Shown: positions 17,341 through 29,463 of the stretch, piece after piece | Numbering within the stretch: the first letter of the stretch is position 1 | How the letters are laid out: every line of letters starts with the position of its first letter | NCBI GenBank assembly: GCA_015492245.1 | Contig: WGFM01000032.1 | Span: 6,231-70,230, forward strand | Direction of reading: 5' to 3' | Length of the DNA stretch: 64,000 nt | DNA from: Deltaproteobacteria bacterium | GTDB lineage: Bacteria; Desulfobacterota; GWC2-55-46; DRQE01 | The notes under the pieces: generated by a model | The model's database searches: none | Told to the model about the DNA's origin: nothing | Seen by the model: the letters and a program-made list of their open reading frames with translations, nothing else | Translations under genes and position numbers: made by a program

Positions 17341-18498
17341 TTATCCCTTCATGGCCTTTATGAGCACCCCTGCAACCTCTGGCCTTGAGAACTCTGGCGG
17401 AGGTATCTCACCCTGTCTTAGCATCTCACGCACCTTTGTTCCAGAAAGGGTTATGTGGTCATGGGAGTCATGGGGGCAGGTCTTGTATGAAGCCATACCG
17501 CCACATCTTTTGCAGTAGAATGTGTAGTCGAAAAAGAGCGGAGTTATGCCTATCTTTTCGGGATCGAACTCGTCGAATATGTAGTGTGCATCGAATGTGC
17601 CGTAGTAGTTGCCCACACCTGCATGGTCTCTACCCACTATGAAGTGGGTGCACCCGTAGTTCTTGCGTATAAGGGCATGGAACACGGCCTCTCTGGGGCC
17701 TGCATACCTCATTGCCGCAGGAAACACAAGGAGCATCACCCTGTCCTTTGGATAGTAGTTCTCCATGAGGACCTCGTAGCAGCGCATCCTCACATCTGCA
17801 GGTATATCGTCTGCCTTGGTCTCACCCACAAGGGGGTGTATCATTAGTCCATCCACCACTTCGAGGGCACACTTCTGTATGTACTCGTGGGCACGGTGTA
17901 TGGGGTTACGGGTCTGAAAGCCCACCACCCTCTTCCATCCACGTTCCTGGAAGAGGGCCCTCGTCTGGGCAGGGTCAAGTCTGTATTGTTTGAAGTCCTC
18001 ATGTTCTGGCCTCTCTATGAGTGAGACCTTTCCACCAAGGAGCATATCTCCTGACTGGTAGAGTCTCTTTACCCCTGGGTGTGCCTCCTCCCTTGTGCCG
18101 TATACCTGGAGGGCCTCTTTATCCTTGTCGTGGGGGAATACCTCCTCTACCGCCATAAGGGCCAGTATGGTGCCATCTTCGCTGGTAAGGGCCACATCTT
18201 CGCCCTCTTTTATGGTGTCTGCGGTCTCTTTCGAGACCGCAAGGGTTACCGGAATGGTCCATGGCAGCCCACCTGCAAGGTGCATGGTGTCCATGGTGGA
18301 GTGGTAGTCCTCTTTTGTCATGAAGCCCTCGAGGGGGCTGTATGCACCTGTTGATATAAGCTCCAGATCAGATATTTCTTTTGGGCTGATGGCTATCTTC
18401 CTTAGCCCCTCTGCCCTCTTTCTCGCCTCCGTGAGCTCATCGCCTTTCAGCCTTCTGTCAACGAGCCTTCCCCCGTGGGGTGCAATGGTCTCTTTCAC
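17341..18498 (-). CDS. sat: Sulfate adenylyltransferase (ATP sulfurylase), homo-oligomeric type without APS-kinase domain
   Basis: 385 aa. [23 protein letters not shown] and PUA-like N-terminal domain are ATP-sulfurylase signatures. Confidence 0.9.
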
Positions 18499-18546
18499 CC
18501 TTTCGTACCTCCTTGAGTAGTCTTTGGTAGCAGAGTATACTCTGGC

Positions 18547-19242
18547 TTACTGGTGCAGCCCGCACTCGGTCTTTTCTTTGCCAGCCCATCTGCCTGCCCT
18601 GGGGTCCTCGCCTGGATGGACGGGCCTTGTGCAGGGCTGGCAGCCTATGCTGGGATAGTTCTGGTCATGGAGCACATTGTATGGAACATCGTTATCCTTT
18701 ATGTAGTTCCATACATCGTCGTATGTCCATGCAACAAGCGGGTTTATCTTTACAAGGCCGAACCTGTTGTCCCATGTAACAACCGGGGCATTCGCCCTTG
18801 TTGGGGACTGCTCTCTCCTTATACCTGTTATCCATGCCTTGAGGTCCTTGAGGGCTGCCTCGAGGGGGCGCACCTTTCTTATCCTACAGCACTCATCAGG
18901 GTTTGTCTCCCAGAGCTTTGGGCCATACTTCTCTTCCATCTCCTCGAGGGTAATTTCTGCCTCGTACTTTTCGGGCTGTATGCCGTACTTCTCCTTCACC
19001 CTCTCTATCACATCGTAGGTCTCCTTGAAAAGCAGCCCTGTATCGAGGTAGAAGATCCTGGCATCCTTCCTTATCTTGACGAGCATATCCAGGAGCACCA
19101 CATCCTCTGCACCGAAGCTGCATGCAAGTGATATGTGGGGATGAAAGTTGTCAAGCGCCCACCCGATTACTTCCTGTGGGGATTTGCCCTCGAAGGAATC
19201 ACTTGTCTTTTTCAGTTCTTCTTCTGTCCACACTTTCTCCAT
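18547..19242 (-). CDS. cysH: Adenylylsulfate (APS) reductase, thioredoxin-dependent CysH family with Fe-S Cys cluster
   Basis: PAPS_reduct fold (SFGAEDVVLLDM). CC (ECCRIRK) plus C-terminal CQPCT pattern typical of APS- rather than PAPS-reductases. Catalytic ECGLH tail. Confidence 0.85.
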   Translation of the reverse strand: MEKVWTEEELKKTSDSFEGKSPQEVIGWALDNFHPHISLACSFGAEDVVLLDMLVKIRKDARIFYLDTGLLFKETYDVIERVKEKYGIQPEKYEAEITLEEMEEKYGPKLWETNPDECCRIRKVRPLEAALKDLKAWITGIRREQSPTRANAPVVTWDNRFGLVKINPLVAWTYDDVWNYIKDNDVPYNVLHDQNYPSIGCQPCTRPVHPGEDPRAGRWAGKEKTECGLHQ

Positions 19243-19248
19243 CTTCTC

Positions 19249-19722
19249 CTATACCTCCTCTTCGTCGAATATTTCCACCCTGCAGGATACCCGCTCCTTC
19301 AACTCATCCATCATCGAAGAAGAGAAGTATCTCCTCAGGGTGGTTGTCTTCTTCCTTATAGTTATTATAAGCTCTATGGAATATTTTTCTATTGTTTTTT
19401 TGATGATCTCGATAAAATCTCCCTCTTCCATCAGGGGTTCGAACTCCACGCCCTCTTCCATGGCCTTTATCTGCACCTTGCCGAGTTCTTCATAGCCCCG
19501 TTGTCTGGACTCCTTCATTATGGCCTCTGACAGCTGTGTAGAGGGCTTGTCCCCTATGAAGCCCACATCTGAGAACCGCTCGAGCGCCTCTTCTGCAACG
19601 GCCCTGTCGAGTATGTAGAGGGCGTAGAGCATGGCACCCTCTTTCTTTGCGGTCCTTACCGCATGTTCTATTGCCCTCTCGGATCTTCTCGAGCCCGGTA
19701 TAACGAGCACTATCCCCTTCAC
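19249..19722 (-). CDS. Universal stress protein (UspA family)
   Basis: GTG start at 19720-19722 preceded by GGAGGG RBS. USP alpha/beta signature IVLVIPGSRRSERAIEHAV...IELIITIRKK. Overlaps stop of the upstream transporter by 4 nt. The track's 283-aa ORF is an out-of-frame read-through. Confidence 0.65.
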   Translation of the reverse strand: MKGIVLVIPGSRRSERAIEHAVRTAKKEGAMLYALYILDRAVAEEALERFSDVGFIGDKPSTQLSEAIMKESRQRGYEELGKVQIKAMEEGVEFEPLMEEGDFIEIIKKTIEKYSIELIITIRKKTTTLRRYFSSSMMDELKERVSCRVEIFDEEEV

Positions 19723-21152
19723 CTCAACCCTCCGAGCCCTATGAGCGGCCAGTAGAACCTTGCCACGAGGTTGAAGACCACCCAAGAGGTTATGCTCATT
19801 ATGACACCTGCCTTTGCCATGTCCCTGATCGTAAGGTATGTGGAGGATACAGCTATGGCGTTTGCAGGTGTCGAAAGGGGCAGTGTGAAGGCAAGCCCTG
19901 CGGGCACCGCTATGGCATAGGTTACGAGCACAGGGTCTATGTTGACCCCTCCGGTAAGCCCTATTCCCACAGGCAGAAGTATGGCAATCACTGCGGCATT
20001 GCTTATCCCCTCTGTAAAGAGCAGTGCCAGAAGGCTCAGTACCGCCACTGCAAGCCATGGCTCCACCATCCATCCACCTATCGTGGACTGGGCTATCCAC
20101 ATGGCGGCCCCACTTCTTTCAAGGGCAGTGCCCATTATTATCGCCCCTCCGTACATGAGTATTATACCCCAGTTCACATACTCCTCTATGTCCTTCCAGC
20201 GCACAAGCCTCAACACGAAAAGGGCCACCACCGCTGCAAGGGACACCGTGGCAAGCCCAACCCTTGCGCCAAGGGTTGCCCATGCCACCACGGTAACCAC
20301 AAGGATTATGCCCACCATGTATTCATTGTAACCTATCTTTCCCATGGATTGTATACGCCTTTTGAGCACCTCGTGTGCCTTCTCCACACTGTCTATGTCC
20401 ATGGAGAACAACCTTGTAAGAAGAAAGTAACCAAACAGCAGCATTATCACCACAACGGGAAAGACCCCTACCGAGTAGCTTATGAAGTCTATGGTCCTGC
20501 CCGTGGTCTCCTTCAGTATGCCCAGGGCAAGGGGCACCCTTGCACCACCGAGGAATGTGGCGATCCCTCCTATGACGCAACCCCAGGCGAGCGAGAGAAA
20601 GAGCATCTTCGCATAGGTGGACCTACCTGGTCTCAGCCCAAGGCTCTTTGCGATCTCGAACACTATGGGAAATAGCATGGCAGCCACCGCATGTTCTGAC
20701 ATGAAGCAGGAAAGCAGCGCCGCCAGGAGGTATATGCTCAGAAGAAGCCTTGCCGGTGAACTACCGAATCTATCCATTATAACGAGGGCGATCCTGTTGG
20801 AAAGCCCTGAATGCATCACCGCACCTGCCAGTATGAAGGCACCAAGGATGAAGAATACCGCCTCGTTGCCGAAGAGCCCGTATACCTCTTCTTTTGGCAG
20901 TATGTCCACAAGCGGCACAAGTGCTATGGCAAAAAGGCTGGTTATGGCAAGGGGTATTATGTTGGACACCCACAGTATAAGACACAGGATGAACACCGCT
21001 ATGGCGTTCTTGCCCTCAGGGGTAAGCCCCTCGGGGGTGGGCATCTTTATGAGGTAATAGAACCCTGCCGCAAGGAGCACAAAGAAGGCAGGCCGAAGCC
21101 CCTTCAAGACAAGCAGCACCCATATGGACCTTCTGTCTATCTCTACAGCCAT
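19719..21152 (-). CDS. DASS/SLC13-family anion:sodium symporter (putative sulfate permease)
   Basis: 477 aa, about 12-14 TM helices, duplicated-repeat architecture with SNxA/TNxA-like hairpin tips (ISNAAVIAILLP). Genomic context with usp-cysH-sat. Confidence 0.7.
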   Translation of the reverse strand: MAVEIDRRSIWVLLVLKGLRPAFFVLLAAGFYYLIKMPTPEGLTPEGKNAIAVFILCLILWVSNIIPLAITSLFAIALVPLVDILPKEEVYGLFGNEAVFFILGAFILAGAVMHSGLSNRIALVIMDRFGSSPARLLLSIYLLAALLSCFMSEHAVAAMLFPIVFEIAKSLGLRPGRSTYAKMLFLSLAWGCVIGGIATFLGGARVPLALGILKETTGRTIDFISYSVGVFPVVVIMLLFGYFLLTRLFSMDIDSVEKAHEVLKRRIQSMGKIGYNEYMVGIILVVTVVAWATLGARVGLATVSLAAVVALFVLRLVRWKDIEEYVNWGIILMYGGAIIMGTALERSGAAMWIAQSTIGGWMVEPWLAVAVLSLLALLFTEGISNAAVIAILLPVGIGLTGGVNIDPVLVTYAIAVPAGLAFTLPLSTPANAIAVSSTYLTIRDMAKAGVIMSITSWVVFNLVARFYWPLIGLGGLR

Positions 21153-21208: not shown

Positions 21209-22402
21209 TCAATCCTCTTCTATCTCCTTTACCCTGAGCTTTCGCCTCAGGGTGGAGAGCCCCCAGGCGGTCTTGAGTCCCAGCCTTGTGCCATAGAACT
21301 TTTCGATTAGCCCGCTTATCCCACCAGTTTTCTCACCTGCAATGAGTCTACCCTCTATGGGTGTGGTTACAACACTTATATCCCTCATCCAGTTCATGTT
21401 TATCCCCTTCTTCTTTACCGCCCTGTAGAGGTGTCTGTATATGGGTATTATCACCTCTGCATTAAGGGGTTCTATCCTCAGGGCCCCACCAGGGCGTGGC
21501 CTGTATATGGGCAATATGGGCACCACGCCCATGTCTGTGAGAAAGTCTATGCCCATGCATGTGGAGCCAGGGGGTTCAAGCCCCACTATGAGGTGTGAGG
21601 CAACGGTGCCATTTGGAAATATGTCTGCCGCATATCTCAATGCCTCTATGTATCTTTTTCTGCCCACAAACCTTGCCCTGCCCGGGCAGAGTGCCTCGAA
21701 GAGCTCCTCGTCGAATATCTCGAGGTTGTAGAGCAGGGCATCTGCCCCAAGGGCATATGTCCTGTCTATCCAGTGATTGTTCTTCGGTGGAAGGGCTTCC
21801 ACTGCAACAAGGCAGTTGAACCTCTTCTTTATGGCCTCTATGTAGGGTGTGAGGAACCCTATGCCACCATCGTCGTCCTCGGTAAAGCCCGTGGAAAGGT
21901 ATATTATCTCTGACACTCCTTCCTCAAGCACTGCCGAGACGACCTCCACCACCTCGTCCACTGTATGGGTTCTGCCCGGTCTTTCATCGTATCCACCGGC
22001 ACAATAGCTGCACTCCACCTTCTTTTCGAAGAACACACACTCCTTCTTGGGTAGAATCAGCACATAGCTCCCGTGCACCGTGGCTATCTCGCTGTAGGGT
22101 GTGCCCTCTCCTGTCGTTCTCGAGAGAAACTCGGGCATTTTTACAGGCCTTACCTCCACCTCACCTGTGGTGTCTGATATGAGCCACCTTTCTCCCGCCT
22201 TCTTGAGAACATATGGAGAATCTCTGGTGAACTCCTCTCCGCAGGGCACATTCACAGGGGAACCCCCTGGAAGCACTATGTCCACTCCCTCACCTGCCCT
22301 GCCGTAGAAGGCAAGAGGGCCATCTTCCCGGGGAAGCCTTATCCCCCTGAGCATGAGGTCTATCTTCAATGTGCCGGGGTTGTTGAGGTAGCTCTTTTTC
22401 AT
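21209..22402 (-). CDS. Uncharacterised radical-SAM-like protein with non-canonical Cx8Cx2C motif and N-terminal about 110-aa extra domain
   Basis: 397 aa. KKECVFFEKKVECSYCAGGYDER cluster loop; GxIxGxxE-like IVGLEPPG; TIM-barrel-like periodicity. Its start abuts the stop of the E1 gene (22402/22403). Confidence 0.5.
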   Translation of the reverse strand: MKKSYLNNPGTLKIDLMLRGIRLPREDGPLAFYGRAGEGVDIVLPGGSPVNVPCGEEFTRDSPYVLKKAGERWLISDTTGEVEVRPVKMPEFLSRTTGEGTPYSEIATVHGSYVLILPKKECVFFEKKVECSYCAGGYDERPGRTHTVDEVVEVVSAVLEEGVSEIIYLSTGFTEDDDGGIGFLTPYIEAIKKRFNCLVAVEALPPKNNHWIDRTYALGADALLYNLEIFDEELFEALCPGRARFVGRKRYIEALRYAADIFPNGTVASHLIVGLEPPGSTCMGIDFLTDMGVVPILPIYRPRPGGALRIEPLNAEVIIPIYRHLYRAVKKKGINMNWMRDISVVTTPIEGRLIAGEKTGGISGLIEKFYGTRLGLKTAWGLSTLRRKLRVKEIEED

Positions 22403-23224
22403 CTAAGTTTCACAACTCGAGCGTTGCAGCTCGCAACTCTCCTCGTATGTTACAAGCTCTTTTATGGATGGCTCCTTGCCACAGAGCCTGCACCCGGGGT
22501 CTTTCCTTACCCTGACTTTTCTGAAGTCCATCCTCAATGCATCGAATATGAGGAGCCTTCCCGAAAGCCCCTCGCCTATCCTGAGTATCTCCTTTATGGT
22601 CTCAACAGCCTGCAACACCCCTATGACCCCTGCAAGGGCACCGAGTACGCCTGCCTCCTGGCAGCTTGGCACAAGCCCTGGTGGAGGGGGCTCTGGATAG
22701 AGACACCTGTAACATGGCGAGCCCTCATGGGGCTTGAAGACCGAAAGCTGCCCCTCGAAACGGAACATGCTGCCAGATACAAGAGGCCTATGCTCGAAAA
22801 AGGCCGCATCGTTTACGAGAAACCTTGTAGGGAAGTTGTCCGAGCCATCGAGCACAATATGGAACCCCCTTATGACCTCCCTTATGTTCTCCCTTGTGAG
22901 CCTCTCGTTGTAGGTTATAACCTCTACATCAGGGTTTAACTCCTCTATGGTCTTCTTTGCAGAGAGTGCCTTCGGGGTGCCAACCCTGGGGGTGGAGTGT
23001 ATTATCTGACGCTGAAGGTTGCTCAGATCCACCCTGTCTCCATCGGCGATCCCCACGGTGCCAACCCCTGCAGCTGCAAGATACATGAGCGCAGGCGAAC
23101 CAAGCCCACCTGCACCAACCACAAGGACCCTGGCATCGAGCAACTTTCGCTGCCCCCTGCCACCAACCTCTGGAAGTATGATGTGCCTGGAATACCGCTC
23201 TATCTGCTCCTCTGTAAAATCCAT
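22403..23224 (-). CDS. MoeZ/MoeB/ThiF-family E1-like sulfur-carrier-protein adenylyltransferase
   Basis: RYSRHIILPEVGGRGQRKL, nucleotide loop VVGAGGLGS, two CxxC pairs (CYRC...CRLC). Confidence 0.85.
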   Translation of the reverse strand: MDFTEEQIERYSRHIILPEVGGRGQRKLLDARVLVVGAGGLGSPALMYLAAAGVGTVGIADGDRVDLSNLQRQIIHSTPRVGTPKALSAKKTIEELNPDVEVITYNERLTRENIREVIRGFHIVLDGSDNFPTRFLVNDAAFFEHRPLVSGSMFRFEGQLSVFKPHEGSPCYRCLYPEPPPPGLVPSCQEAGVLGALAGVIGVLQAVETIKEILRIGEGLSGRLLIFDALRMDFRKVRVRKDPGCRLCGKEPSIKELVTYEESCELQRSSCET

Positions 23225-23297: not shown

Positions 23298-23702
23298 CTA
23301 TTTCTCGGCTATTTCTTCTTCTACAAACACATCGGCATCATCCAGCCTCCAGCACCTGACCTCAGTCTCTCTCCCGCCCCTTACTCCCACGATGAGGTAG
23401 AAGTATTCGGGCCATGCCCTGGTTCTGTCGAACTCAGATGGTTCTGCCGGGTGATCCGGGTGTGAGTGGTATATGCCGATTACCGCAAGCCCCCTTTTTG
23501 CTGCCTCTTTTTCCACCATGAGGAATTCCCGTGGGTCTATCTCGTAGCGGTCCTGCGCCCTTTCGGTGTTGATATTTTTAACCTTCACCGCCTCTAACAC
23601 CACCCCTTCCTTACCCAGAAGCAGTCCGCAGCATTCATTGGGGTAAGAGGCCCTTGCATTCTCACGCACCTTTTCTGCTGCATCCCTGACTATGCGAAGC
23701 AT
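23298..23702 (-). CDS. JAMM/MPN+ metalloprotease (Mec+/CysO-hydrolase-like)
   Basis: 134 aa with canonical JAMM motif E...HSHPDHPAEPSEFD (HxHx7Sx2D). Confidence 0.85.
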   Translation of the reverse strand: MLRIVRDAAEKVRENARASYPNECCGLLLGKEGVVLEAVKVKNINTERAQDRYEIDPREFLMVEKEAAKRGLAVIGIYHSHPDHPAEPSEFDRTRAWPEYFYLIVGVRGGRETEVRCWRLDDADVFVEEEIAEK

Positions 23703-23712
23703 CTTTCCGTAG

Positions 23713-24672
23713 TCAATCCTCCCACACCCTTGTGGAGAGGTACTTGTCTCCGCCGTCCGGGAACATGACGACTATGAGCCCCTCTTTGAGTGTCCTTGCA
23801 AGCCTCAATGCCCCGAGTAGAGCTGCCCCTGAGGACTGGCCTGCAAGTATGCCCTCTTCTTTTGCAAGCCTTCTTGTCATCTCGTAGGACTCTTCGGTGT
23901 CTGCCGGTATCTTATCGTCCAGTTCTTCCTCGTGGTATATGCCAGGCACGATGCTCGATGCCATGTGTTTAAGGCCCTCGAGCCCGTGAAGGGGGCTATC
24001 GGGCTCAACTGCTATGACCTTTATATCCTTTCTGAACTCCTTCAATCTTCTTCCAGTGCCCATTATGGTTCCCCCTGTGCCTATGCTTGCCACAAAGTGG
24101 GTTATTCTGCCCTCTGTCTGTGCGATTATCTCTGGCCCGGTGGTCTCGTAATGGGCAAGGGGGTTGGAGGGGTTGTTGTATTGATCAAGCTTGCAGTATT
24201 TCTCGGGGTTGTCCACATATAGCTTCCAGCAAAGCCTTATGGCCCCATCGGAGCCCTCCAAGGGGTCAGAGAATATCACCTTAGCCCCGTAGGCGCTGAG
24301 CATCTTCTTTCGCTCCTCACTCACATTGCCTGGCACCACAAGCTCCACCCTGTAGCCCTTGTGTGCGCCTATCCATGCATAGGCAATGCCTGTGTTGCCG
24401 GATGTTGAATCGAGTATTATCTTGTCCTTCGTAAGACGGCCTGCCTTCTCGGCGTCCTCTATCATCTTCAGTGCTGGCCTGTCCTTTACAGAACCCCCTG
24501 GATTGTAGCCCTCGAGCTTGGCATATATCTCCACCCCGGGAGGTATATCCCTGGTTACATTCCTTATATTGACGAGCGGGGTGTTGCCAACAAGGTCTAT
24601 AACAGAGCCCACCGCCTCCCTTACCCCTCCTGACCTTGTCCGGTAGTCCGCCCCTGCAACCCTTGTATCCAT
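23713..24672 (-). CDS. cysM: Cysteine synthase, CysM/CysK family (likely carrier-protein-thiocarboxylate-dependent)
   Basis: PLP-lysine motif GGSVKDR, GNTGIA, SIGTGGT. Start reassigned to the internal ATG at 24670-24672 (MDTRVAG...), 6 nt after RBS AGGGAGG. Confidence 0.85.
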   Translation of the reverse strand: MDTRVAGADYRTRSGGVREAVGSVIDLVGNTPLVNIRNVTRDIPPGVEIYAKLEGYNPGGSVKDRPALKMIEDAEKAGRLTKDKIILDSTSGNTGIAYAWIGAHKGYRVELVVPGNVSEERKKMLSAYGAKVIFSDPLEGSDGAIRLCWKLYVDNPEKYCKLDQYNNPSNPLAHYETTGPEIIAQTEGRITHFVASIGTGGTIMGTGRRLKEFRKDIKVIAVEPDSPLHGLEGLKHMASSIVPGIYHEEELDDKIPADTEESYEMTRRLAKEEGILAGQSSGAALLGALRLARTLKEGLIVVMFPDGGDKYLSTRVWED

Positions 24673-24722
24673 ACAAAAACCTCCCTGAAGTAAAGACAAA
24701 ATACCTTACTAACTTAGTCAAG

Positions 24723-24750
24723 TTTATAATAGATTAGTATTTTTGTCAAG
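24723..24750 (-). promoter_or_regulatory. Internal sigma70-type promoter TTGACA-N16-TATAAA upstream of cysM
   Basis: Minus strand reads TTGACAaaaatactaatctatTATAAAct, within the 88-nt gap between the NIL gene stop and cysM. Confidence 0.4.
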
Positions 24751-24787
24751 AACTTTAACAAAAAAAGGCACTTACGGTGGGAGGGTC

Positions 24788-25027
24788 TTACTCTATTATA
24801 TCGAGTTCTATGGGTTCCACCTTAACGCCTTTGTCGATGAAGAACTGTATTGCCCTGCCTATCTCCTCTTCGCTACCCTCGAGCTCAAGGGCCACAAGCC
24901 CCATGGTATCTGACACACATGCCTGCCGTATGTTGGTAACCACACGGAAGCGCTTGCCCGCCTCGTATATGAGGGGTTCCTTCACGAGCTCCCTCGGGTA
25001 TGTAAGGTAGACCCTTTTTTTCAACAC
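24788..25027 (-). CDS. Stand-alone NIL-domain protein (MetN C-terminal-like; sulfur-amino-acid-associated)
   Basis: 79 aa. PLIYEAGKRFRVVTNIRQACVSD.MGLVALELEGSEEEIGRAIQFFIDKGVKVEPIE matches the RF.V..NI..A...G.M.LEL.G....A...L...V.VE NIL pattern. Confidence 0.55.
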   Translation of the reverse strand: MLKKRVYLTYPRELVKEPLIYEAGKRFRVVTNIRQACVSDTMGLVALELEGSEEEIGRAIQFFIDKGVKVEPIELDIIE

Positions 25028-25302
25028 ATGCCTCCTGCTATTGCAGGAATTATGGAGAGCTCATCACCCTCTTTGAGCTCTGTATCCAGGTTGAGCTTGA
25101 ACCGTATGTCCTCATCGTTCACATAGAGGTTTACGAACTTTCTTATAGAGCCGTCTTCCTCGCAGATGCGCTCTTTTATACCTGGATACCTCTTTTCGAG
25201 GTCATCTATGACCTCTCTTACTGTTGTGCCCTCTGCAGTAACCTCGTCCTTGCCTTCTGTAAGTTTCCTCAGTGGTGTGGGTATCCTTACCTTTACAGCC
25301 AT
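25021..25302 (-). CDS. MoaD/ThiS/CysO-family sulfur carrier protein with C-terminal GG followed by 2-residue extension (..AIAGG-MC)
   Basis: 93-aa beta-grasp. C-terminal DELSIIPAIAGGMC resembles MoaD ...VAIIPPVSGG but with MC after the di-glycine. Confidence 0.75.
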   Translation of the reverse strand: MAVKVRIPTPLRKLTEGKDEVTAEGTTVREVIDDLEKRYPGIKERICEEDGSIRKFVNLYVNDEDIRFKLNLDTELKEGDELSIIPAIAGGMC

Positions 25303-25332: not shown

Positions 25333-25575
25333 TTATTCGCCTCTTTCTATAAGGAGCCTGAAGTGGTCGTCCTCTTTCTTCACATCTATTATCCTGTGTC
25401 CCTCTTCTTTTATGCTCTTTGGCACATTCTGGATGGGCTCTCCACTGTCGAGCACCACCTCGAGCACCTCGCCCTTCTCCATGCTCTCGAGCTTGAGCTT
25501 GGTCTTAACGAAGTTCATGGGGCAGAGCACCCCTCTCAGGTCAAGGGTATCTACCGGTCTTACTTCTGCTGACAT
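25333..25575 (-). CDS. tusA: TusA/SirA-like sulfurtransferase
   Basis: 80 aa with LDLRGVLCPMNFVKTK active-site Cys motif (CPxP variant). Confidence 0.7.
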   Translation of the reverse strand: MSAEVRPVDTLDLRGVLCPMNFVKTKLKLESMEKGEVLEVVLDSGEPIQNVPKSIKEEGHRIIDVKKEDDHFRLLIERGE

Positions 25576-26534
25576 GCTGCCTCCTTTGCTCCGAGCACCC
25601 TGTCGCCGAAGACATCTTTCATGAATTCAAGGTACTTATCGACCCCCACGCGTTCCAGGGTCTTTCCAATCCTCTCACCCCTCATGCCATTTGCCATATA
25701 CCACTCTATGGTCTTCTCGATTACCTCTGCCACCTTCTCGTCAGGCACAAAGAGTGCCACCTCTTCTGCCTCCATGGGCCATCTACCGTGCTTTCCACCA
25801 ACCCGTACGAGGTGTCCATAGCGCTTTGCCCTCCAGGCACCTGTTGGGCATGCACGGATGCAATCGCCACAGTAGATGCATTTTTCAGGATAGTAGATGG
25901 GTTTACCCGTATCGGGATCACTCTCTATGGCGTCCTCCTTACATGCCTCGGCACATATGGTGCAGCCCGTGCATGTGGGTTCCTCCCACTCGGGCTCCAC
26001 CACACCCTGAAAGCCCAGGTCCATCTCTCTGGTTCTTGCACAATCTATCGGGCAGCCAGAGAAGGATATTTTGAACTTGTGGTGTGTGGGTGTGCCGAAG
26101 AACCTTTCATCCACCATCTTTGCAAGGGCCTGGGTGTCGGTAAGCCCATTCGGGTTGTACTCACAGCCGCCACAGGCAGTGGGCACCCTCACCCTTGGCC
26201 CGCAGGAGGCAACCTTCCAGCCTATGGCCTCAAGCTCCTTCACAAGCTGGGGGAACTCCTTGTAGTCCACATAGAGTATCTCTATGGATTGGCGAAAGCT
26301 CAGGTGTATGACGCCCTTCTTGCTGTACTTGTGGGCTATCTTCGAGATTTCTATGAGCTTATCTGTTGGAACCCTTCCCCCAGGGCATCGAAGCCTCACG
26401 GTGAAAAGATCACGCTGGCGCTGTTTTATAAAGCCACCTGTCTTGAGCTCGCCAAAATCGAGTTTTTTTGTCTCTCCGTCGAGGCTTACCTCGACCCTTG
26501 TGGTCTTATCCTCAATGAAACGGTCCATGGACAC
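25560..26534 (-). CDS. Small sulfite/nitrite-reductase-family protein (siroheme/4Fe-4S-binding half-domain) with inserted 2x[4Fe-4S] ferredoxin domain; assimilatory-type low-MW sulfite reductase / AsrC-like
   Basis: NiR/SiR ferredoxin-like half domain. Siroheme-cluster cysteines SCGPRVRVPTACGGC...SGCPIDCA. Ferredoxin motifs CTGCTICAEAC and CIYCGDCIRACP. Confidence 0.7.
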   Translation of the reverse strand: MSMDRFIEDKTTRVEVSLDGETKKLDFGELKTGGFIKQRQRDLFTVRLRCPGGRVPTDKLIEISKIAHKYSKKGVIHLSFRQSIEILYVDYKEFPQLVKELEAIGWKVASCGPRVRVPTACGGCEYNPNGLTDTQALAKMVDERFFGTPTHHKFKISFSGCPIDCARTREMDLGFQGVVEPEWEEPTCTGCTICAEACKEDAIESDPDTGKPIYYPEKCIYCGDCIRACPTGAWRAKRYGHLVRVGGKHGRWPMEAEEVALFVPDEKVAEVIEKTIEWYMANGMRGERIGKTLERVGVDKYLEFMKDVFGDRVLGAKEAACQQK

Positions 26535-26599
26535 ATCTCTCCTTTCAAAAAGATGTAGACAACTATGATAACAAAAAACCCCCTGGGGGTAAAGGAGGA

Positions 26600-27853
26600 T
26601 TAGCCCTCCAGGGCATATTTTTCATCCATCTTCTTTACCAGCTCATCGAAGTCCTTGAGGCTTGCGTTTATGGTGGGCACCTCTTCGAGTCTTCCATGGA
26701 GTGCCTCCTGGGTCTTGAGCCCGTTGCCTGTTACGGAGACCACTATGGACTCGTCCCTGGGGATTCGGCCCTGTTCTATGAGCTTCTTTGTAACCCCCAG
26801 GGTAACCCCACCGGCTGTCTCTGCAAATATGCCCTCCCTTTCTGCCAGAAGCTTTATCGCCTCTACGATTTCCTCATCCGACACATCCTCTGCCCATCCG
26901 CCACTCTCTCTTATGGTCTTCGCAGAGTAGTAGCCATCGGCAGGGTTGCCTATCGCAAGGGATTTTGCAATGGTGTTGGGTCTTACAGGCTCTATGAGCT
27001 CTTTACCCCTCTTTACCGCTGTAACTATGGGTGCACAGCCCGTTGCCTGTGCCCCGTAGACCTTCGCATCCATGTTGTCCACAAGCCCGAGCATATGAAG
27101 CTCTCTGTATGCCTTCCACACCTTCGTTATGAGCGAGCCCCCTGCCATTGGCACAACCGTGTGTCTGGGCAGCCTCCAGCCCAGCTGTTCTGCAATCTCG
27201 AAGCCGAAGGTCTTCGAGCCCTCGGCATAATAGGGCCTTATGTTTATGTTCACGAATGCCCAGCCGTATTTGCCCGCAATCTCACTGCACAGGCGGTTTA
27301 CCTCATCGTATGTGCCCCTTATACCCACGACCCTTGCCCCGTATACGAGGGTTCCCACAATCTTCGTGGGCTCGAGATCGAAGGGTATGAACACATAGCT
27401 CTCCATACCACAGGCAGTGGCATTTGCAGCCACAGAGTTCGCAAGGTTGCCTGTGGACGCACAGGAGGCCACCTTGAAGCCCATCTCCAGTGCCCTGGAG
27501 ATGGCAACAGAGACCACCCTGTCCTTGAAAGAGAGGGTGGGATAGTTTACCGCATCGTTCTTTATGTAGAGCTCCTTTACACCCAGGGCCTTCTCAAGGT
27601 TTCTCGCCCTTATAAGGGGCGTAAAACCAACTTCTCTGCCCACCGTGGGCTCTCCATCTATGGGTAGAAGCTCCCTGTAGCGCCACATGTTCTGTGGCCT
27701 CTTCTCTATGGTCTCTTTCGACAGGCTCTTCTTGATTTTACCATACTCGTAGACCACCTCGAGGGGACCAAAGCAGTACTCGCACACATGCAAAGCCTTC
27801 CTGGGATACTCCCTGCCACACTCTCTGCATCTCAGTGCCTTCATAAAGCCCAT
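26600..27853 (-). CDS. thrC: Threonine-synthase-family PLP enzyme with N-terminal zinc ribbon; candidate phosphohomoserine sulfhydrylase given SAM-riboswitch control
   Basis: CRECG...CEYC ribbon and PLP-lysine motif TLSFKDR, ThrC fold. Directly downstream of a SAM-I riboswitch. Confidence 0.75.
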   Translation of the reverse strand: MGFMKALRCRECGREYPRKALHVCEYCFGPLEVVYEYGKIKKSLSKETIEKRPQNMWRYRELLPIDGEPTVGREVGFTPLIRARNLEKALGVKELYIKNDAVNYPTLSFKDRVVSVAISRALEMGFKVASCASTGNLANSVAANATACGMESYVFIPFDLEPTKIVGTLVYGARVVGIRGTYDEVNRLCSEIAGKYGWAFVNINIRPYYAEGSKTFGFEIAEQLGWRLPRHTVVPMAGGSLITKVWKAYRELHMLGLVDNMDAKVYGAQATGCAPIVTAVKRGKELIEPVRPNTIAKSLAIGNPADGYYSAKTIRESGGWAEDVSDEEIVEAIKLLAEREGIFAETAGGVTLGVTKKLIEQGRIPRDESIVVSVTGNGLKTQEALHGRLEEVPTINASLKDFDELVKKMDEKYALEG

Positions 27854-27879: not shown

Positions 27880-28078
27880 TAAAAAAAACCTCTTCCTTAC
27901 TTTTTCCCTTTGAAGTTAAGAAGAGGTCTTAACGACTCTTCTTATCTTCCAGGAGCCCTTTAACTGGAAGACTCCTGCTGGAATTAGCACCGGGCGTTTC
28001 ATCCCCCAAGGGGGATAAAACCGGTTGCTGTGGCTTCACGGGGCCAGTTCCCTCCACCACTCTGGATAAGAAGATTAT
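27880..28078 (-). promoter_or_regulatory. SAM-I (S-box) riboswitch: aptamer (about 27936-28076) plus intrinsic terminator (27881-27927)
   Basis: Minus strand reads UCUUAUCCAGAGUGGUGGAGGGAACUGGCCCCGUGAAGCCACAGCAACC...GGUGCUAAUUCCAGCAG...GGAAGAUAAGAAGAG, matching S-box conserved positions. Then hairpin GACCUCUUC...GAAGAGGU + UUUUUUUU, then RBS GGGAGGA and the thrC ATG. Confidence 0.85.
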
Positions 28079-28189: not shown

Positions 28190-29071
28190 CTAAGTGTTAT
28201 CGAGCAGGAACTCCTTGAACTTCCTTGTTGCAGGTGAAGGACTTCTCTTTGAATGTGTTATTATATGGAAGTATCGTTCTATGCCGACACCCTTTATCTT
28301 GACCTCCTTGAGCATCTTTCTTCTCACATGCTCACATATGGCAAGTCTGGACATGAAGGCAAGCCCGAGCCCGCTCTTTATTGCACCCACAAGGGCCTGT
28401 GTGGAGCCCATCTCTGCCACTATGTTGAGTCCTTCAGGCTCTATGCCTGCCTCTCTTATGGCCCTTTCTGTCTCCATCCTGGTTCCAGAGCCCCTTTCCC
28501 TTACCACAAGTGGTATATGGGAAAGCTCTTCCCTTGAGACCCTCGATTTCTTGAAGGAAGAAGGTGCTGCCAGCACTATCTCGTCGGATACAAACCTTTC
28601 CAGCAATAGATGTTTATCCTTCACCACCGAGCCCACCACCCCTATGTCCACCCTTCCCTCTGACACCATGTGGCTTACCTTTTCTGTATCCGCTATGGTT
28701 AGTGATGGAAAGACCCCCGGGTACAGTCTTCTGAACTCTGCTATCCTCTGTGGCAGTATGTACTCCCCTGGTATGGTGCTCGCCCCTATTGTGAGTGTAC
28801 CCTGCACCGAGCCGCCGAACTCTTTCAGGGACTGGCTTGCCTCCTCTTTGAGTCTTACAATCTCCTTGGCGTATCTGTAGAGTATGGCTCCCTCCTTGGT
28901 GGGCACCACCTTTCTGCCGAGTCTGTCCAGCAGTCTTGTGGTGAGGGTTTCCTCAAGGGTTCTTATGTGAATACTTATGGTGGGTTGGGTAAGATTCAGA
29001 GACTCTGCAGCCTGGGAAAATCCTCCTTCCTCAACAACTCTGCAGAATATCTCAAGAAGTCTCAACTCCAC
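28190..29071 (-). CDS. LysR-family transcriptional regulator
   Basis: N-terminal wHTH MELRLLEIFCRVVEEGGFSQAAESLNLTQPTISIHIRTLE, C-terminal LysR substrate-binding domain. Confidence 0.85.
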   Translation of the reverse strand: MELRLLEIFCRVVEEGGFSQAAESLNLTQPTISIHIRTLEETLTTRLLDRLGRKVVPTKEGAILYRYAKEIVRLKEEASQSLKEFGGSVQGTLTIGASTIPGEYILPQRIAEFRRLYPGVFPSLTIADTEKVSHMVSEGRVDIGVVGSVVKDKHLLLERFVSDEIVLAAPSSFKKSRVSREELSHIPLVVRERGSGTRMETERAIREAGIEPEGLNIVAEMGSTQALVGAIKSGLGLAFMSRLAICEHVRRKMLKEVKIKGVGIERYFHIITHSKRSPSPATRKFKEFLLDNT

Positions 29072-29234
29072 GGGCTGCCCCTCTTTTTTTTATTCTTTCT
29101 TTCTCCTTCTTCAGAGAGCAGTCGGGGCACGCATACATCTTGTGGTGCTTTATAGTAAGTCTATCATATTCTTTATCGAGGGCAACCCTTATGACAACAT
29201 CACACTCTTTACCACAGAAATCACACCTTAACAT
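29052..29234 (-). CDS. Small zinc-ribbon protein (CxxC...CxxC)
   Basis: 60 aa, MLRCDFCGKEC...YACPDCS. RBS AAGGAGG 9 nt upstream of the ATG at 29232-29234. Overlaps neighbours on both sides. Confidence 0.45.
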   Translation of the reverse strand: MLRCDFCGKECDVVIRVALDKEYDRLTIKHHKMYACPDCSLKKEKERIKKRGAARGVETS

Positions 29235-29463
29235 ACCCTTTCTCCTCCTTCCTGTATACGGCGGAAGGATGCACCCTGTGAGCCGAAAGTACGGAGAGGG
29301 CCTCCTCGAGGTCCTCTTCTCTTTTAACCGTTATGACCAGATCGCAGTACTTCGTAAGGGTTCGTGGTGCAGGGTCAAGCCGTATATCGACACCCTGGTC
29401 CTTCAGAAGACTTTCTGCCTTCAGCACCTTATGTGTGGTTGAGAAGGCAAGTATATGTTTCAT
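29221..29463 (-). CDS. DUF3343-like small protein (putative Se/S carrier-like family)
   Basis: 80 aa. MKHILAFSTTHKVLKAESLLKDQGVDIRLDPAPR pattern recalled for DUF3343. Confidence 0.4.
   Translation of the reverse strand: MKHILAFSTTHKVLKAESLLKDQGVDIRLDPAPRTLTKYCDLVITVKREEDLEEALSVLSAHRVHPSAVYRKEEKGYVKV

Follow-up and report, generated by a model that had tools for sequence, protein, structure and literature searches.

MoeB/ThiF-type E1 enzymes adenylate a free C-terminal glycine carboxylate, and ubiquitin and ubiquitin-like precursors (ubiquitin-ribosomal protein fusions, polyubiquitin, and tailed SUMO and NEDD8) are processed by deubiquitinating enzymes. Among bacterial sulfur carriers, CysO-Cys is reportedly hydrolysed by Mec+. 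HcyS of Wolinella succinogenes is said to carry a one-residue extension, which is trimmed by the JAMM protein HcyD, an enzyme that reportedly also releases homocysteine, and the HcyS/HcyD/HcyF/MetY cluster is said to adjoin genes for sulfate assimilation and sulfite reductase. The carriers QbsE, which ends in GG-CF, and CxnE, which has the tail SEAARAEESR, are encoded in clusters with the JAMM proteins QbsD and CxnF respectively, which have been proposed or shown to trim these carriers before adenylation (PMC5925218). In Streptomyces albulus, the MetM/MetO route leads from O-phosphohomoserine to homocysteine, according to PMC12172450 and GapMind 2026, and metM is preceded by an S-adenosylmethionine (SAM) riboswitch, according to PMC12172450. 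Mec is stated to be required for the maturation of MetO in the GapMind 2026 preprint (bioRxiv 10.1101/2024.10.14.618325), which cites Hasebe 2024. Synthesis of a sulfur carrier as a pro-form that is matured by a JAMM peptidase is an already described principle, and the locus reported here is a further example. It lies in a stretch of 64,000 nucleotides (nt) from a Deltaproteobacteria bacterium (uncultured and Thermodesulfobacteriota-like; contig WGFM01000032.1, positions 6,231 to 70,230), called the window below, and encodes a ThiS/MoaD-type sulfur carrier that extends two residues beyond Gly-Gly (GG), together with a JAMM peptidase. The sequences of the locus and of its relatives point, with good probability, to a thiocarboxylate pathway for both cysteine and homocysteine (of the CysO/CysM/Mec+ plus MetO/MetM/Mec type) in a riboswitch operon, in which the carrier would be trimmed by the JAMM peptidase and the tail of the carrier would be a spacer.

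Coordinates are positions in the window; the minus strand encodes every gene discussed below. The region from the carrier to the JAMM gene contains the following features.

25021..25302, minus strand: carrier pro-form of 93 residues, ThiS/MoaD fold, CysO/MetO-like (Pfam ThiS, E=3.4e-20)
25030-25302, minus strand: mature part of the carrier, ending in Gly90-Gly91
25024..25029, minus strand: tail codons ATG TGT (Met92-Cys93), predicted to be removed
25031..25036, minus strand: AGGAGG Shine-Dalgarno sequence of the NIL gene, within the Ala-Gly-Gly codons of the carrier
24788..25024, minus strand: NIL-domain protein of 78 residues (Pfam NIL, E=1.1e-12)
23713..24699, minus strand: CysM-type sulfhydrylase dependent on pyridoxal phosphate (PLP) (TIGR01136 cysKM, 356.7 vs cutoff 344.15)
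23298..23702, minus strand: JAMM/MPN+ zinc metallopeptidase of 134 residues (Prok-JAB, E=8.7e-29)

At the 3' end of the carrier gene, the codons gca gga ggc atg tgt tga specify A-G-G-M-C-stop. Translation of the open reading frame (ORF) at 25021-25302 bears out the preliminary description of this DNA, in which the carrier was reported to have residues beyond GG and to end in IPAIAGG-MC. The best solved relatives of the carrier are 4N6E_B (E=3e-26) and CysO of Mycobacterium tuberculosis (3DWG_C, E=3e-22), and both chains terminate exactly at the GG that is aligned to carrier residues 90-91. The 120 best matches of the carrier, which are 73-100% identical to it and come mostly from Thermodesulfobacteriota or "Deltaproteobacteria" metagenome-assembled genomes, were taken as its close homologues. 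Residues follow GG in 119 of them, and exactly two residues follow in 99. The tail is a rule of this family, and not an oddity of the window locus. About 45 kinds of tail dipeptide (AA, RS, VN, LC, IS, MC, MH and others) are found in this set, while the mean column identity of the carrier body is 83% and IPAIAGG is invariant. A hypervariable tail on a conserved body is what is expected of a propeptide that is discarded.

The same holds for the wider family. When 1.84 billion representatives at 50% identity were searched and the 150 best matches were classified by the state of their C-terminus, 28 ended in naked GG, 45 had a tail of 1-3 residues, 25 had a tail of 4-12 residues, 33 had a longer extension, 6 were fused to a NIL domain, and the C-terminus was not matched or truncated in 13. 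Proteins with two carrier domains were not binned apart, and two of them are in the last class. Gene-calling run-ons probably account for some of the longer extensions, and true fusions to rhodanese or E1 account for others. In the CysO/MetO-like carrier family, a masked GG terminus is the usual state.

Chance does not account for the carrier and JAMM ORFs, as an identical carrier protein is encoded in independent assemblies, and the order of the genes is the same there. The close relatives (loci L162-L167) were fetched by look-up of the exact protein, and a metagenome scan with the carrier alignment gave mostly loci that are 52-73% identical. The order ThiS-NIL-PALP-JAB-ThiF is kept in all five long contigs of close relatives (L162-L165 and L167). 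No second carrier and no JAMM paralogue is found in the 64-kb window.

The JAMM motif is complete. It consists of E23 in PNECCG, followed by HSHPDHPAEPSEFD at 23427-23468, which contains H79-S-H81-x7-S89-x2-D92. The solved relatives of the protein are 2KCQ, 2KKS and PfJAMM1 (5LD9). The preliminary description had placed the JAMM gene two genes downstream of the carrier; the gene is the third downstream, because both the NIL gene, which had been overlooked, and the CysM gene intervene. Where 3 kb or more was available on either side of the carrier (79 loci), a JAMM gene is located near 1 of 32 carriers with naked GG, 13 of 39 tailed carriers, and all 8 NIL-fused carriers. Taken together, extended and fused carriers are accompanied by it in 21 of 47 cases, as compared with 1 of 32 for naked ones (p=2.6e-5), and the difference between the fused carriers and the rest is similarly strong (p=1.2e-5). 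These counts, the variability of the tail and the described precedents suggest that the JAMM protein of the operon is most likely the processing enzyme of the carrier pro-form. The earlier proposal that GG has to be exposed and that the JAMM protein exposes it is retained at this strength.

Several results weigh against this assignment. CysM is encoded near 41 of 47 extended carriers and only 6 of 32 naked ones, and therefore confounds the link between tail and JAMM; within the loci that contain CysM, the association of tail and JAMM is not significant (p=0.2). No JAMM gene is found inside the fetched flanks of 26 of the 39 tailed carriers. The loci counted are, moreover, phylogenetically non-independent. 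Because of the confounding by CysM, the JAMM protein probably also has a product-release role of the Mec+ type, and co-occurrence alone is no proof of trimming. In loci of the Binatia type, which have a tail and lack a JAMM gene, the ORF beside the NIL gene was checked for an alternative protease and is a ThiF-like extension of the radical SAM protein.

The same results would be accounted for if the JAMM protein were purely a hydrolase of the Mec+ type, which releases cysteine or homocysteine from the carrier, and the tail were removed by an unlinked peptidase, such as a carboxypeptidase. The presence of JAMM follows that of CysM at least as well as that of the tail, tailed carriers without a nearby JAMM gene are common, and loci with both naked GG and JAMM exist (L098, L123, L158, L160 and L161), as in M. 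tuberculosis. However, trimming and product release both break one and the same bond, a GG-X amide, and the related JAMM proteins QbsD, CxnF and Mec are reported to process such tails. HcyD of W. succinogenes is said to do both, trimming the tail of HcyS and hydrolysing its homocysteine adduct. A JAMM gene is present near each of the eight NIL-fused carriers whose flanks were long enough, and a carboxypeptidase could not resolve a fusion of 80 residues. A pure product-release role is therefore improbable. The results fit a JAMM protein that would cut this amide for two purposes, release of the cysteine and homocysteine adducts and trimming of the residues beyond GG.

The presence of exactly two residues in most tails is best discussed with the NIL gene, which begins at the end of the carrier gene. 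The junction reads A GGA GGC ATG TGT TGA AAA AAA GG. The AGGAGG sequence (25036-25031) is followed by 6 nt and then by the TTG start codon of the NIL gene (25024-25022), which opens the frame M-K-K-R-V-Y-L-T-Y-P... and overlaps the TGA stop codon of the carrier (25023-25021). The same 4-nt overlap is present in independent gene calls of L001, L162, L163, L165, L166 and L167. In ten junctions, those of the window and of nine further loci, GGAGGN or GGGGGG is followed by NNN NNT TGA, and the TTG of the NIL gene overlaps the stop codon. Of 18 loci that have a two-residue tail and a NIL gene downstream, 12 have the NIL start exactly 5 nt past the GG codons. The Gly codons contain GGAGG in 11 of these 12 loci with an overlapping start, but in none of the 6 with a non-overlapping start (p=3.8e-4), and in 1 of 10 in-frame carrier-NIL fusions.

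With the overlap TTGA, only NNT is possible as the last tail codon, and the last tail residue is limited accordingly, because the stop codon of the carrier overlaps the start codon of the next gene. Among 98 two-residue tails, residues that have no NNT codon (K, Q, E, M and W) are found at the last position in 2, as compared with about 20% expected (p=4e-8), while they are found at the first position in 18, which is the expected rate. These results suggest that the identity of the tail residues has no meaning at the protein level, and that the tail looks like a translated spacer between the Shine-Dalgarno sequence and the start codon of the NIL gene. Two results are not accounted for by this spacer. 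Cysteine is the most common last residue (20 of 98), which exceeds the 1/16 expected of a model with NNT codons only. This excess may arise because TGT makes a second in-frame start, xTG-TTG (GTG-TTG in the window). In addition, L164 keeps a two-residue tail (RS), although its NIL start is 52 nt off and its Gly codons are GGCGGC, indicating that translational coupling does not account for every tail.

That the residues of short tails are set by translational coupling to the next gene cautions against reading chemistry into the terminal cysteine, which the preliminary description had regarded as a possible mimic of a cysteine adduct or a protective cap. A tail that is functional at the protein level, chiefly through this cysteine, could be an adduct mimic, a persulfide or zinc ligand, or a cap against premature or off-target adenylation. 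Such a function would agree with the maintenance of tails in nearly all close homologues, although one mutation would remove them, with the frequency of cysteine at the last position, and with the one-residue cysteine tails (GG-C) of L024, L026, L092, L094 and L096 (Mariprofundus, Poribacteria and others), which are exact mimics of the CysO-Cys product; a cap that acts independently of its sequence is also compatible with the data. A tail function at the protein level is very unlikely nevertheless. Cysteine is missing from about 80% of the tails, and it is present at the first position, where it would be bonded to glycine, in only 1 of 98. In the window carrier it occupies P2', and the residue attached to Gly91 is methionine. 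The tail dipeptides are unconstrained except for the NNT rule, which is accounted for by the TTGA overlap, and any cap would be removed constitutively by the co-transcribed JAMM protein. The special role proposed for the cysteine is thus not supported, and the tail is taken as a spacer in what follows.

The NIL protein itself shows only a weak match in the PDB, to the C-terminal domain of MetN (E=0.035). The Thermus "MoaD related protein" (1V8C) was considered as a solved precedent for a carrier-NIL protein and rejected, as only its MoaD part aligns. No report of an association was found in the literature on NIL with MoaD, ThiS or JAB, or on NIL with homocysteine and a sulfur carrier. Carrier and NIL are encoded by a single reading frame, joined by a short basic linker, in 10 of 80 genome loci. 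These loci are spread over several phyla, with examples in Acidulodesulfobacterium, Planctomycetia, Sumerlaeota and various "Deltaproteobacteria". Pfam assigns ThiS to residues 5-91 and NIL to residues ~97-165 in six fusions tested, and AGG is kept at the junction in all. The fusions are located as follows.

L003:8001-8513, L008:3020-3532, L017:8001-8516, L028 and L035:6334-6903: carrier-NIL fusion loci
L039:8001-8531, L042:3326-3853, L043, L066 and L069:8001-8516: further carrier-NIL fusion loci
P0136, P0145, P0172, P0178 and P0208: carrier-NIL fusion proteins

At the sequence level, naked GG, tails of one or two residues and full NIL fusions form a continuum, which is set by the position of the stop codon between the GG codons and NIL. 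The separation of carrier and NIL in the window is hardly an artefact (a sequencing indel that splits a fused gene) or recoding by frameshift at the A-rich junction, because, even though in-frame fusions are known in other lineages, the junction has an A7 run (TTGAAAAAAAGG) and some fusions have A9-A10 runs (L008, L017 and L028), the split with stop codon, overlapping TTG and GGAGG Shine-Dalgarno sequence recurs in about 10 independent assemblies with differing tail codons, no slippery heptamer of the form X XXY YYZ lies ahead of the stop codon, and the Shine-Dalgarno sequence goes together with the split. The lack of this heptamer and the conserved stop/start/Shine-Dalgarno architecture led us to reject programmed frameshifting at the A-run.

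We tentatively suggest that NIL could be a so far overlooked third component of the thiocarboxylate pathway of the MetM/MetO type, produced in an obligate 1:1 ratio with the carrier, either through the Shine-Dalgarno sequence and the overlap or as a carrier-GG-NIL polyprotein cleaved by the JAMM peptidase. If so, carrier-GG-NIL would be a bacterial metabolic counterpart of the ubiquitin-ribosomal protein fusions, and short tails such as MC would be the minimal state of the continuum. The recurrent coupling or fusion of NIL to the carrier in SAM-riboswitch operons points to an uncharacterised partner in the thiocarboxylate-dependent synthesis of methionine and cysteine. Beyond the described principle, the locus is of interest for the overlap of stop and start codons with a Shine-Dalgarno sequence within the Gly-Gly codons, for the repeated fusion of carrier and NIL in relatives, and for the possible role of NIL.

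Other fused carriers were seen in the same family. Three proteins (P0121, P0123 and P0142) have two ThiS/MoaD carrier domains in tandem. A short linker comes after the terminal GG of the first domain; the second domain has a two-residue tail beyond GG in P0121 and P0123 (GGQI and GGAI respectively) and naked GG in P0142. P0179, P0228, P0260 and P0263 continue past the GG of the carrier into a rhodanese-like segment, an E1 (ThiF) domain or both; in P0228 and P0263 the E1 part was matched by phmmer, and the rhodanese assignment of P0179, P0228 and P0260 is putative, having been read from the tail sequences. In the carrier-E1 fusions, the carrier would need to be excised from its own activating enzyme. 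The carrier-NIL fusions may serve bacterial JAMM peptidases as natural polyprotein substrates.

The operon as a whole contains, as judged from domain matches and gene order, a gene set for the route from sulfate to cysteine and homocysteine, with a SAM riboswitch at its head. The remaining features are listed below; the genes for sulfate uptake and activation (the last four) together span 17341..21152 on the minus strand.

27939..28072, minus strand: SAM riboswitch RF00162 (Rfam 83.8 bits vs gathering score 44.4, E=2.6e-18), directly upstream of the ThrC-like gene
26600..27853, minus strand: ThrC-like PLP enzyme with an N-terminal Cys4 zinc ribbon (Pfam PALP, E=3.6e-68)
25560..26534, minus strand: small sulfite-reductase-like protein, NIR_SIR plus 2x4Fe-4S (Pfam NIR_SIR, E=9.3e-28; NIR_SIR_ferr; Fer4)
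25333..25575, minus strand: TusA-like sulfurtransferase with the motif CPMNF (Pfam TusA, E=2.1e-23)
22403..23224, minus strand: MoeB/ThiF-type E1 adenylyltransferase of 273 residues (Pfam ThiF, E=2.3e-81, sole domain)
21209..22402, minus strand: variant radical SAM protein (NF045502 variant_rSAM, 172 bits vs cutoff 125)
19719-21152, minus strand: DASS transporter (sulfate/dicarboxylate type)
19249-19722, minus strand: Usp
18547-19242, minus strand: APS/PAPS reductase (CysH)
17341-18498, minus strand: ATP sulfurylase (Sat)

Of all neighbours of the carrier gene in the 80 genomes, the ThrC-like gene is the most constant, and in most loci it lies immediately upstream of the carrier. Of 10 related loci, 8 have a SAM riboswitch ahead of the ThrC-like gene; one of these is from Verrucomicrobia, where the carrier has naked GG, and another is from Acidulodesulfobacterium, where the carrier is fused to NIL. 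The presence of a SAM riboswitch ahead of these genes argues that they encode enzymes of the methionine pathway, which are MetM-like and are mis-named by automated annotation. The ThrC-like protein is thus a probable homocysteine synthase of the MetM type that would depend on the carrier thiocarboxylate. It still scores as a threonine synthase in NCBIfam: it reaches 285.8 against the cutoff of 167.1 for TIGR00260 thrC, an equivalog, and 302.7 against 303 for PRK08197 threonine synthase. Solved threonine synthases align to it only from residue ~55. A terminator-like hairpin with a T-run and a promoter-like site are present at 26579-26598 (minus strand), between the ThrC-like and sulfite reductase genes, so that transcription of the riboswitch-controlled gene may be partly separate from that of the other operon genes.

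The CysM-type protein is nearest to solved CysM/OASS-B, gives 209 bits to M. tuberculosis CysM (3DWG_A), and is just below the cutoff for the cysM equivalog TIGR01138 (381 vs 394). Its longest ORF begins with TTG, but the true start is likely the ATG at 24672, which is preceded by GGGAGG and gives a protein of 319 residues, as in the gene call of L162. The E1 exceeds the cutoff of the MoeB subfamily PRK05690 (321 vs 266) and is far below that of MoeZ, NF005902 (349 vs 647); the C-terminal rhodanese domain of the MoeZ type is absent from it. The small sulfite-reductase-like protein is below every NCBIfam cutoff and is presumed to be the sulfide source. Its gene overlaps the TusA gene by 16 nt (25560-25575), and sulfite reductase and TusA are fused into a single chain in Zetaproteobacteria (L019:10636-13065 and L024:10546-12888). 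This overlap and these fusions suggest that TusA takes sulfur straight from the reductase, and the two proteins plausibly replace the rhodanese domain as the sulfur supply.

Public names of such proteins probably do not reflect this setting. The carrier exceeds the NCBIfam equivalog cutoff of archaeal SAMP1, NF041918 (69.7 vs 60), but the E1 is below the UbaA cutoff (340 vs 450) and the JAMM protein is below the desampylase cutoff (89 vs 130), indicating that the SAMP1/UbaA/desampylase set is not matched at the equivalog level. The name "ubiquitin-like small modifier protein 1" given to relatives of the carrier is probably an over-annotation, in view of the biosynthetic operon, and both this name and "threonine synthase" are probably misleading for operons of this kind.

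From the sequences and the described precedents, the following course is proposed. The carrier would be made as a 93-residue pro-form ending in AIAGG-MC, and the JAMM zinc peptidase would cleave it between Gly91 and Met92, freeing Met-Cys and exposing the Gly-Gly carboxylate. The MoeB/ThiF-type E1, which has no rhodanese domain, would then adenylate Gly91, and sulfide from the small sulfite reductase, possibly delivered by TusA, would turn the adenylate into a thiocarboxylate. With CysM and the ThrC-like enzyme of the MetM type, the thiocarboxylate would attack the PLP-bound aminoacrylate or vinylglycine intermediates, and an S-to-N acyl shift would give carrier-GG-Cys or carrier-GG-Hcy (homocysteine). 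Finally, the same JAMM peptidase would hydrolyse these adducts, so that the amino acid is freed and the carrier is regenerated. As a GG-specific peptidase would already be there for this last step, extensions beyond GG, from one or two residues up to a fused NIL domain, would be tolerated, and in evolution they may have accumulated where coupling the translation of NIL is of help.

Some neighbouring genes accompany the operon. The radical SAM gene is conserved between the E1 and DASS transporter genes in all close relatives (L162-L167); its product, assigned to NF045502, is related to the MSMEG_0568 family, and it has a ThiF-like N-terminal extension in loci of the Binatia type. Upstream of the riboswitch, at 28190-29463 (minus strand), there are a LysR-type regulator (28190-29071), a Cys-rich ORF of 60 residues that has no family match (29052-29234), and a Se_S_carrier/DUF3343-like protein (29221-29463). 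This trio is also conserved in L162.

Compared with known systems, the locus resembles the ubiquitin and ubiquitin-like precursors in that a beta-grasp protein has its GG masked by a variable tail or a fused protein and would meet a GG-specific peptidase before the E1; the carrier-NIL fusions and tandem carriers of the family mirror the ubiquitin fusions and polyubiquitin. Unlike ubiquitin, the carrier would act in sulfur transfer, and the locus has no E2 or E3 and no sign of protein conjugation. The HcyS system is reportedly similar in its trimmed tail, but is said to contain MetY, an O-acetylhomoserine sulfhydrylase, where the window has a ThrC-like enzyme, and a tail of one residue instead of two. 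QbsE/QbsD of Pseudomonas fluorescens (thioquinolobactin) and CxnE/CxnF (chuangxinmycin) share with the window residues beyond GG and a clustered JAMM protein, and the tail of QbsE also has exactly two residues, one of which is cysteine. Unlike the window carrier, which would serve primary synthesis of cysteine and methionine, QbsE and CxnE serve the insertion of sulfur into secondary metabolites and have no NIL partner.

The CysO/CysM/Mec+/MoeZ system of M. tuberculosis (3DWG/3DWM) is similar in that the window carrier is homologous to CysO and a CysM-type sulfhydrylase and a JAMM protein are encoded in the operon. In contrast, CysO ends in naked GG and MoeZ has a rhodanese domain, and the window CysM is slightly nearer to enterobacterial CysM than to that of M. 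tuberculosis. The likeness to MetO/MetM/Mec/MoeZ of S. albulus is one of gene context and published descriptions: in both, a ThrC-like enzyme is encoded beside a ThiS/MoaD-type carrier, with a SAM riboswitch upstream and a JAMM protein of the Mec type. Unlike in S. albulus, however, the window carrier lies in one operon with CysM, sulfite reductase, TusA, NIL, radical SAM and the entire sulfate-activation set, its E1 is devoid of rhodanese, and NIL is translationally coupled to the carrier or, in relatives, fused to it.

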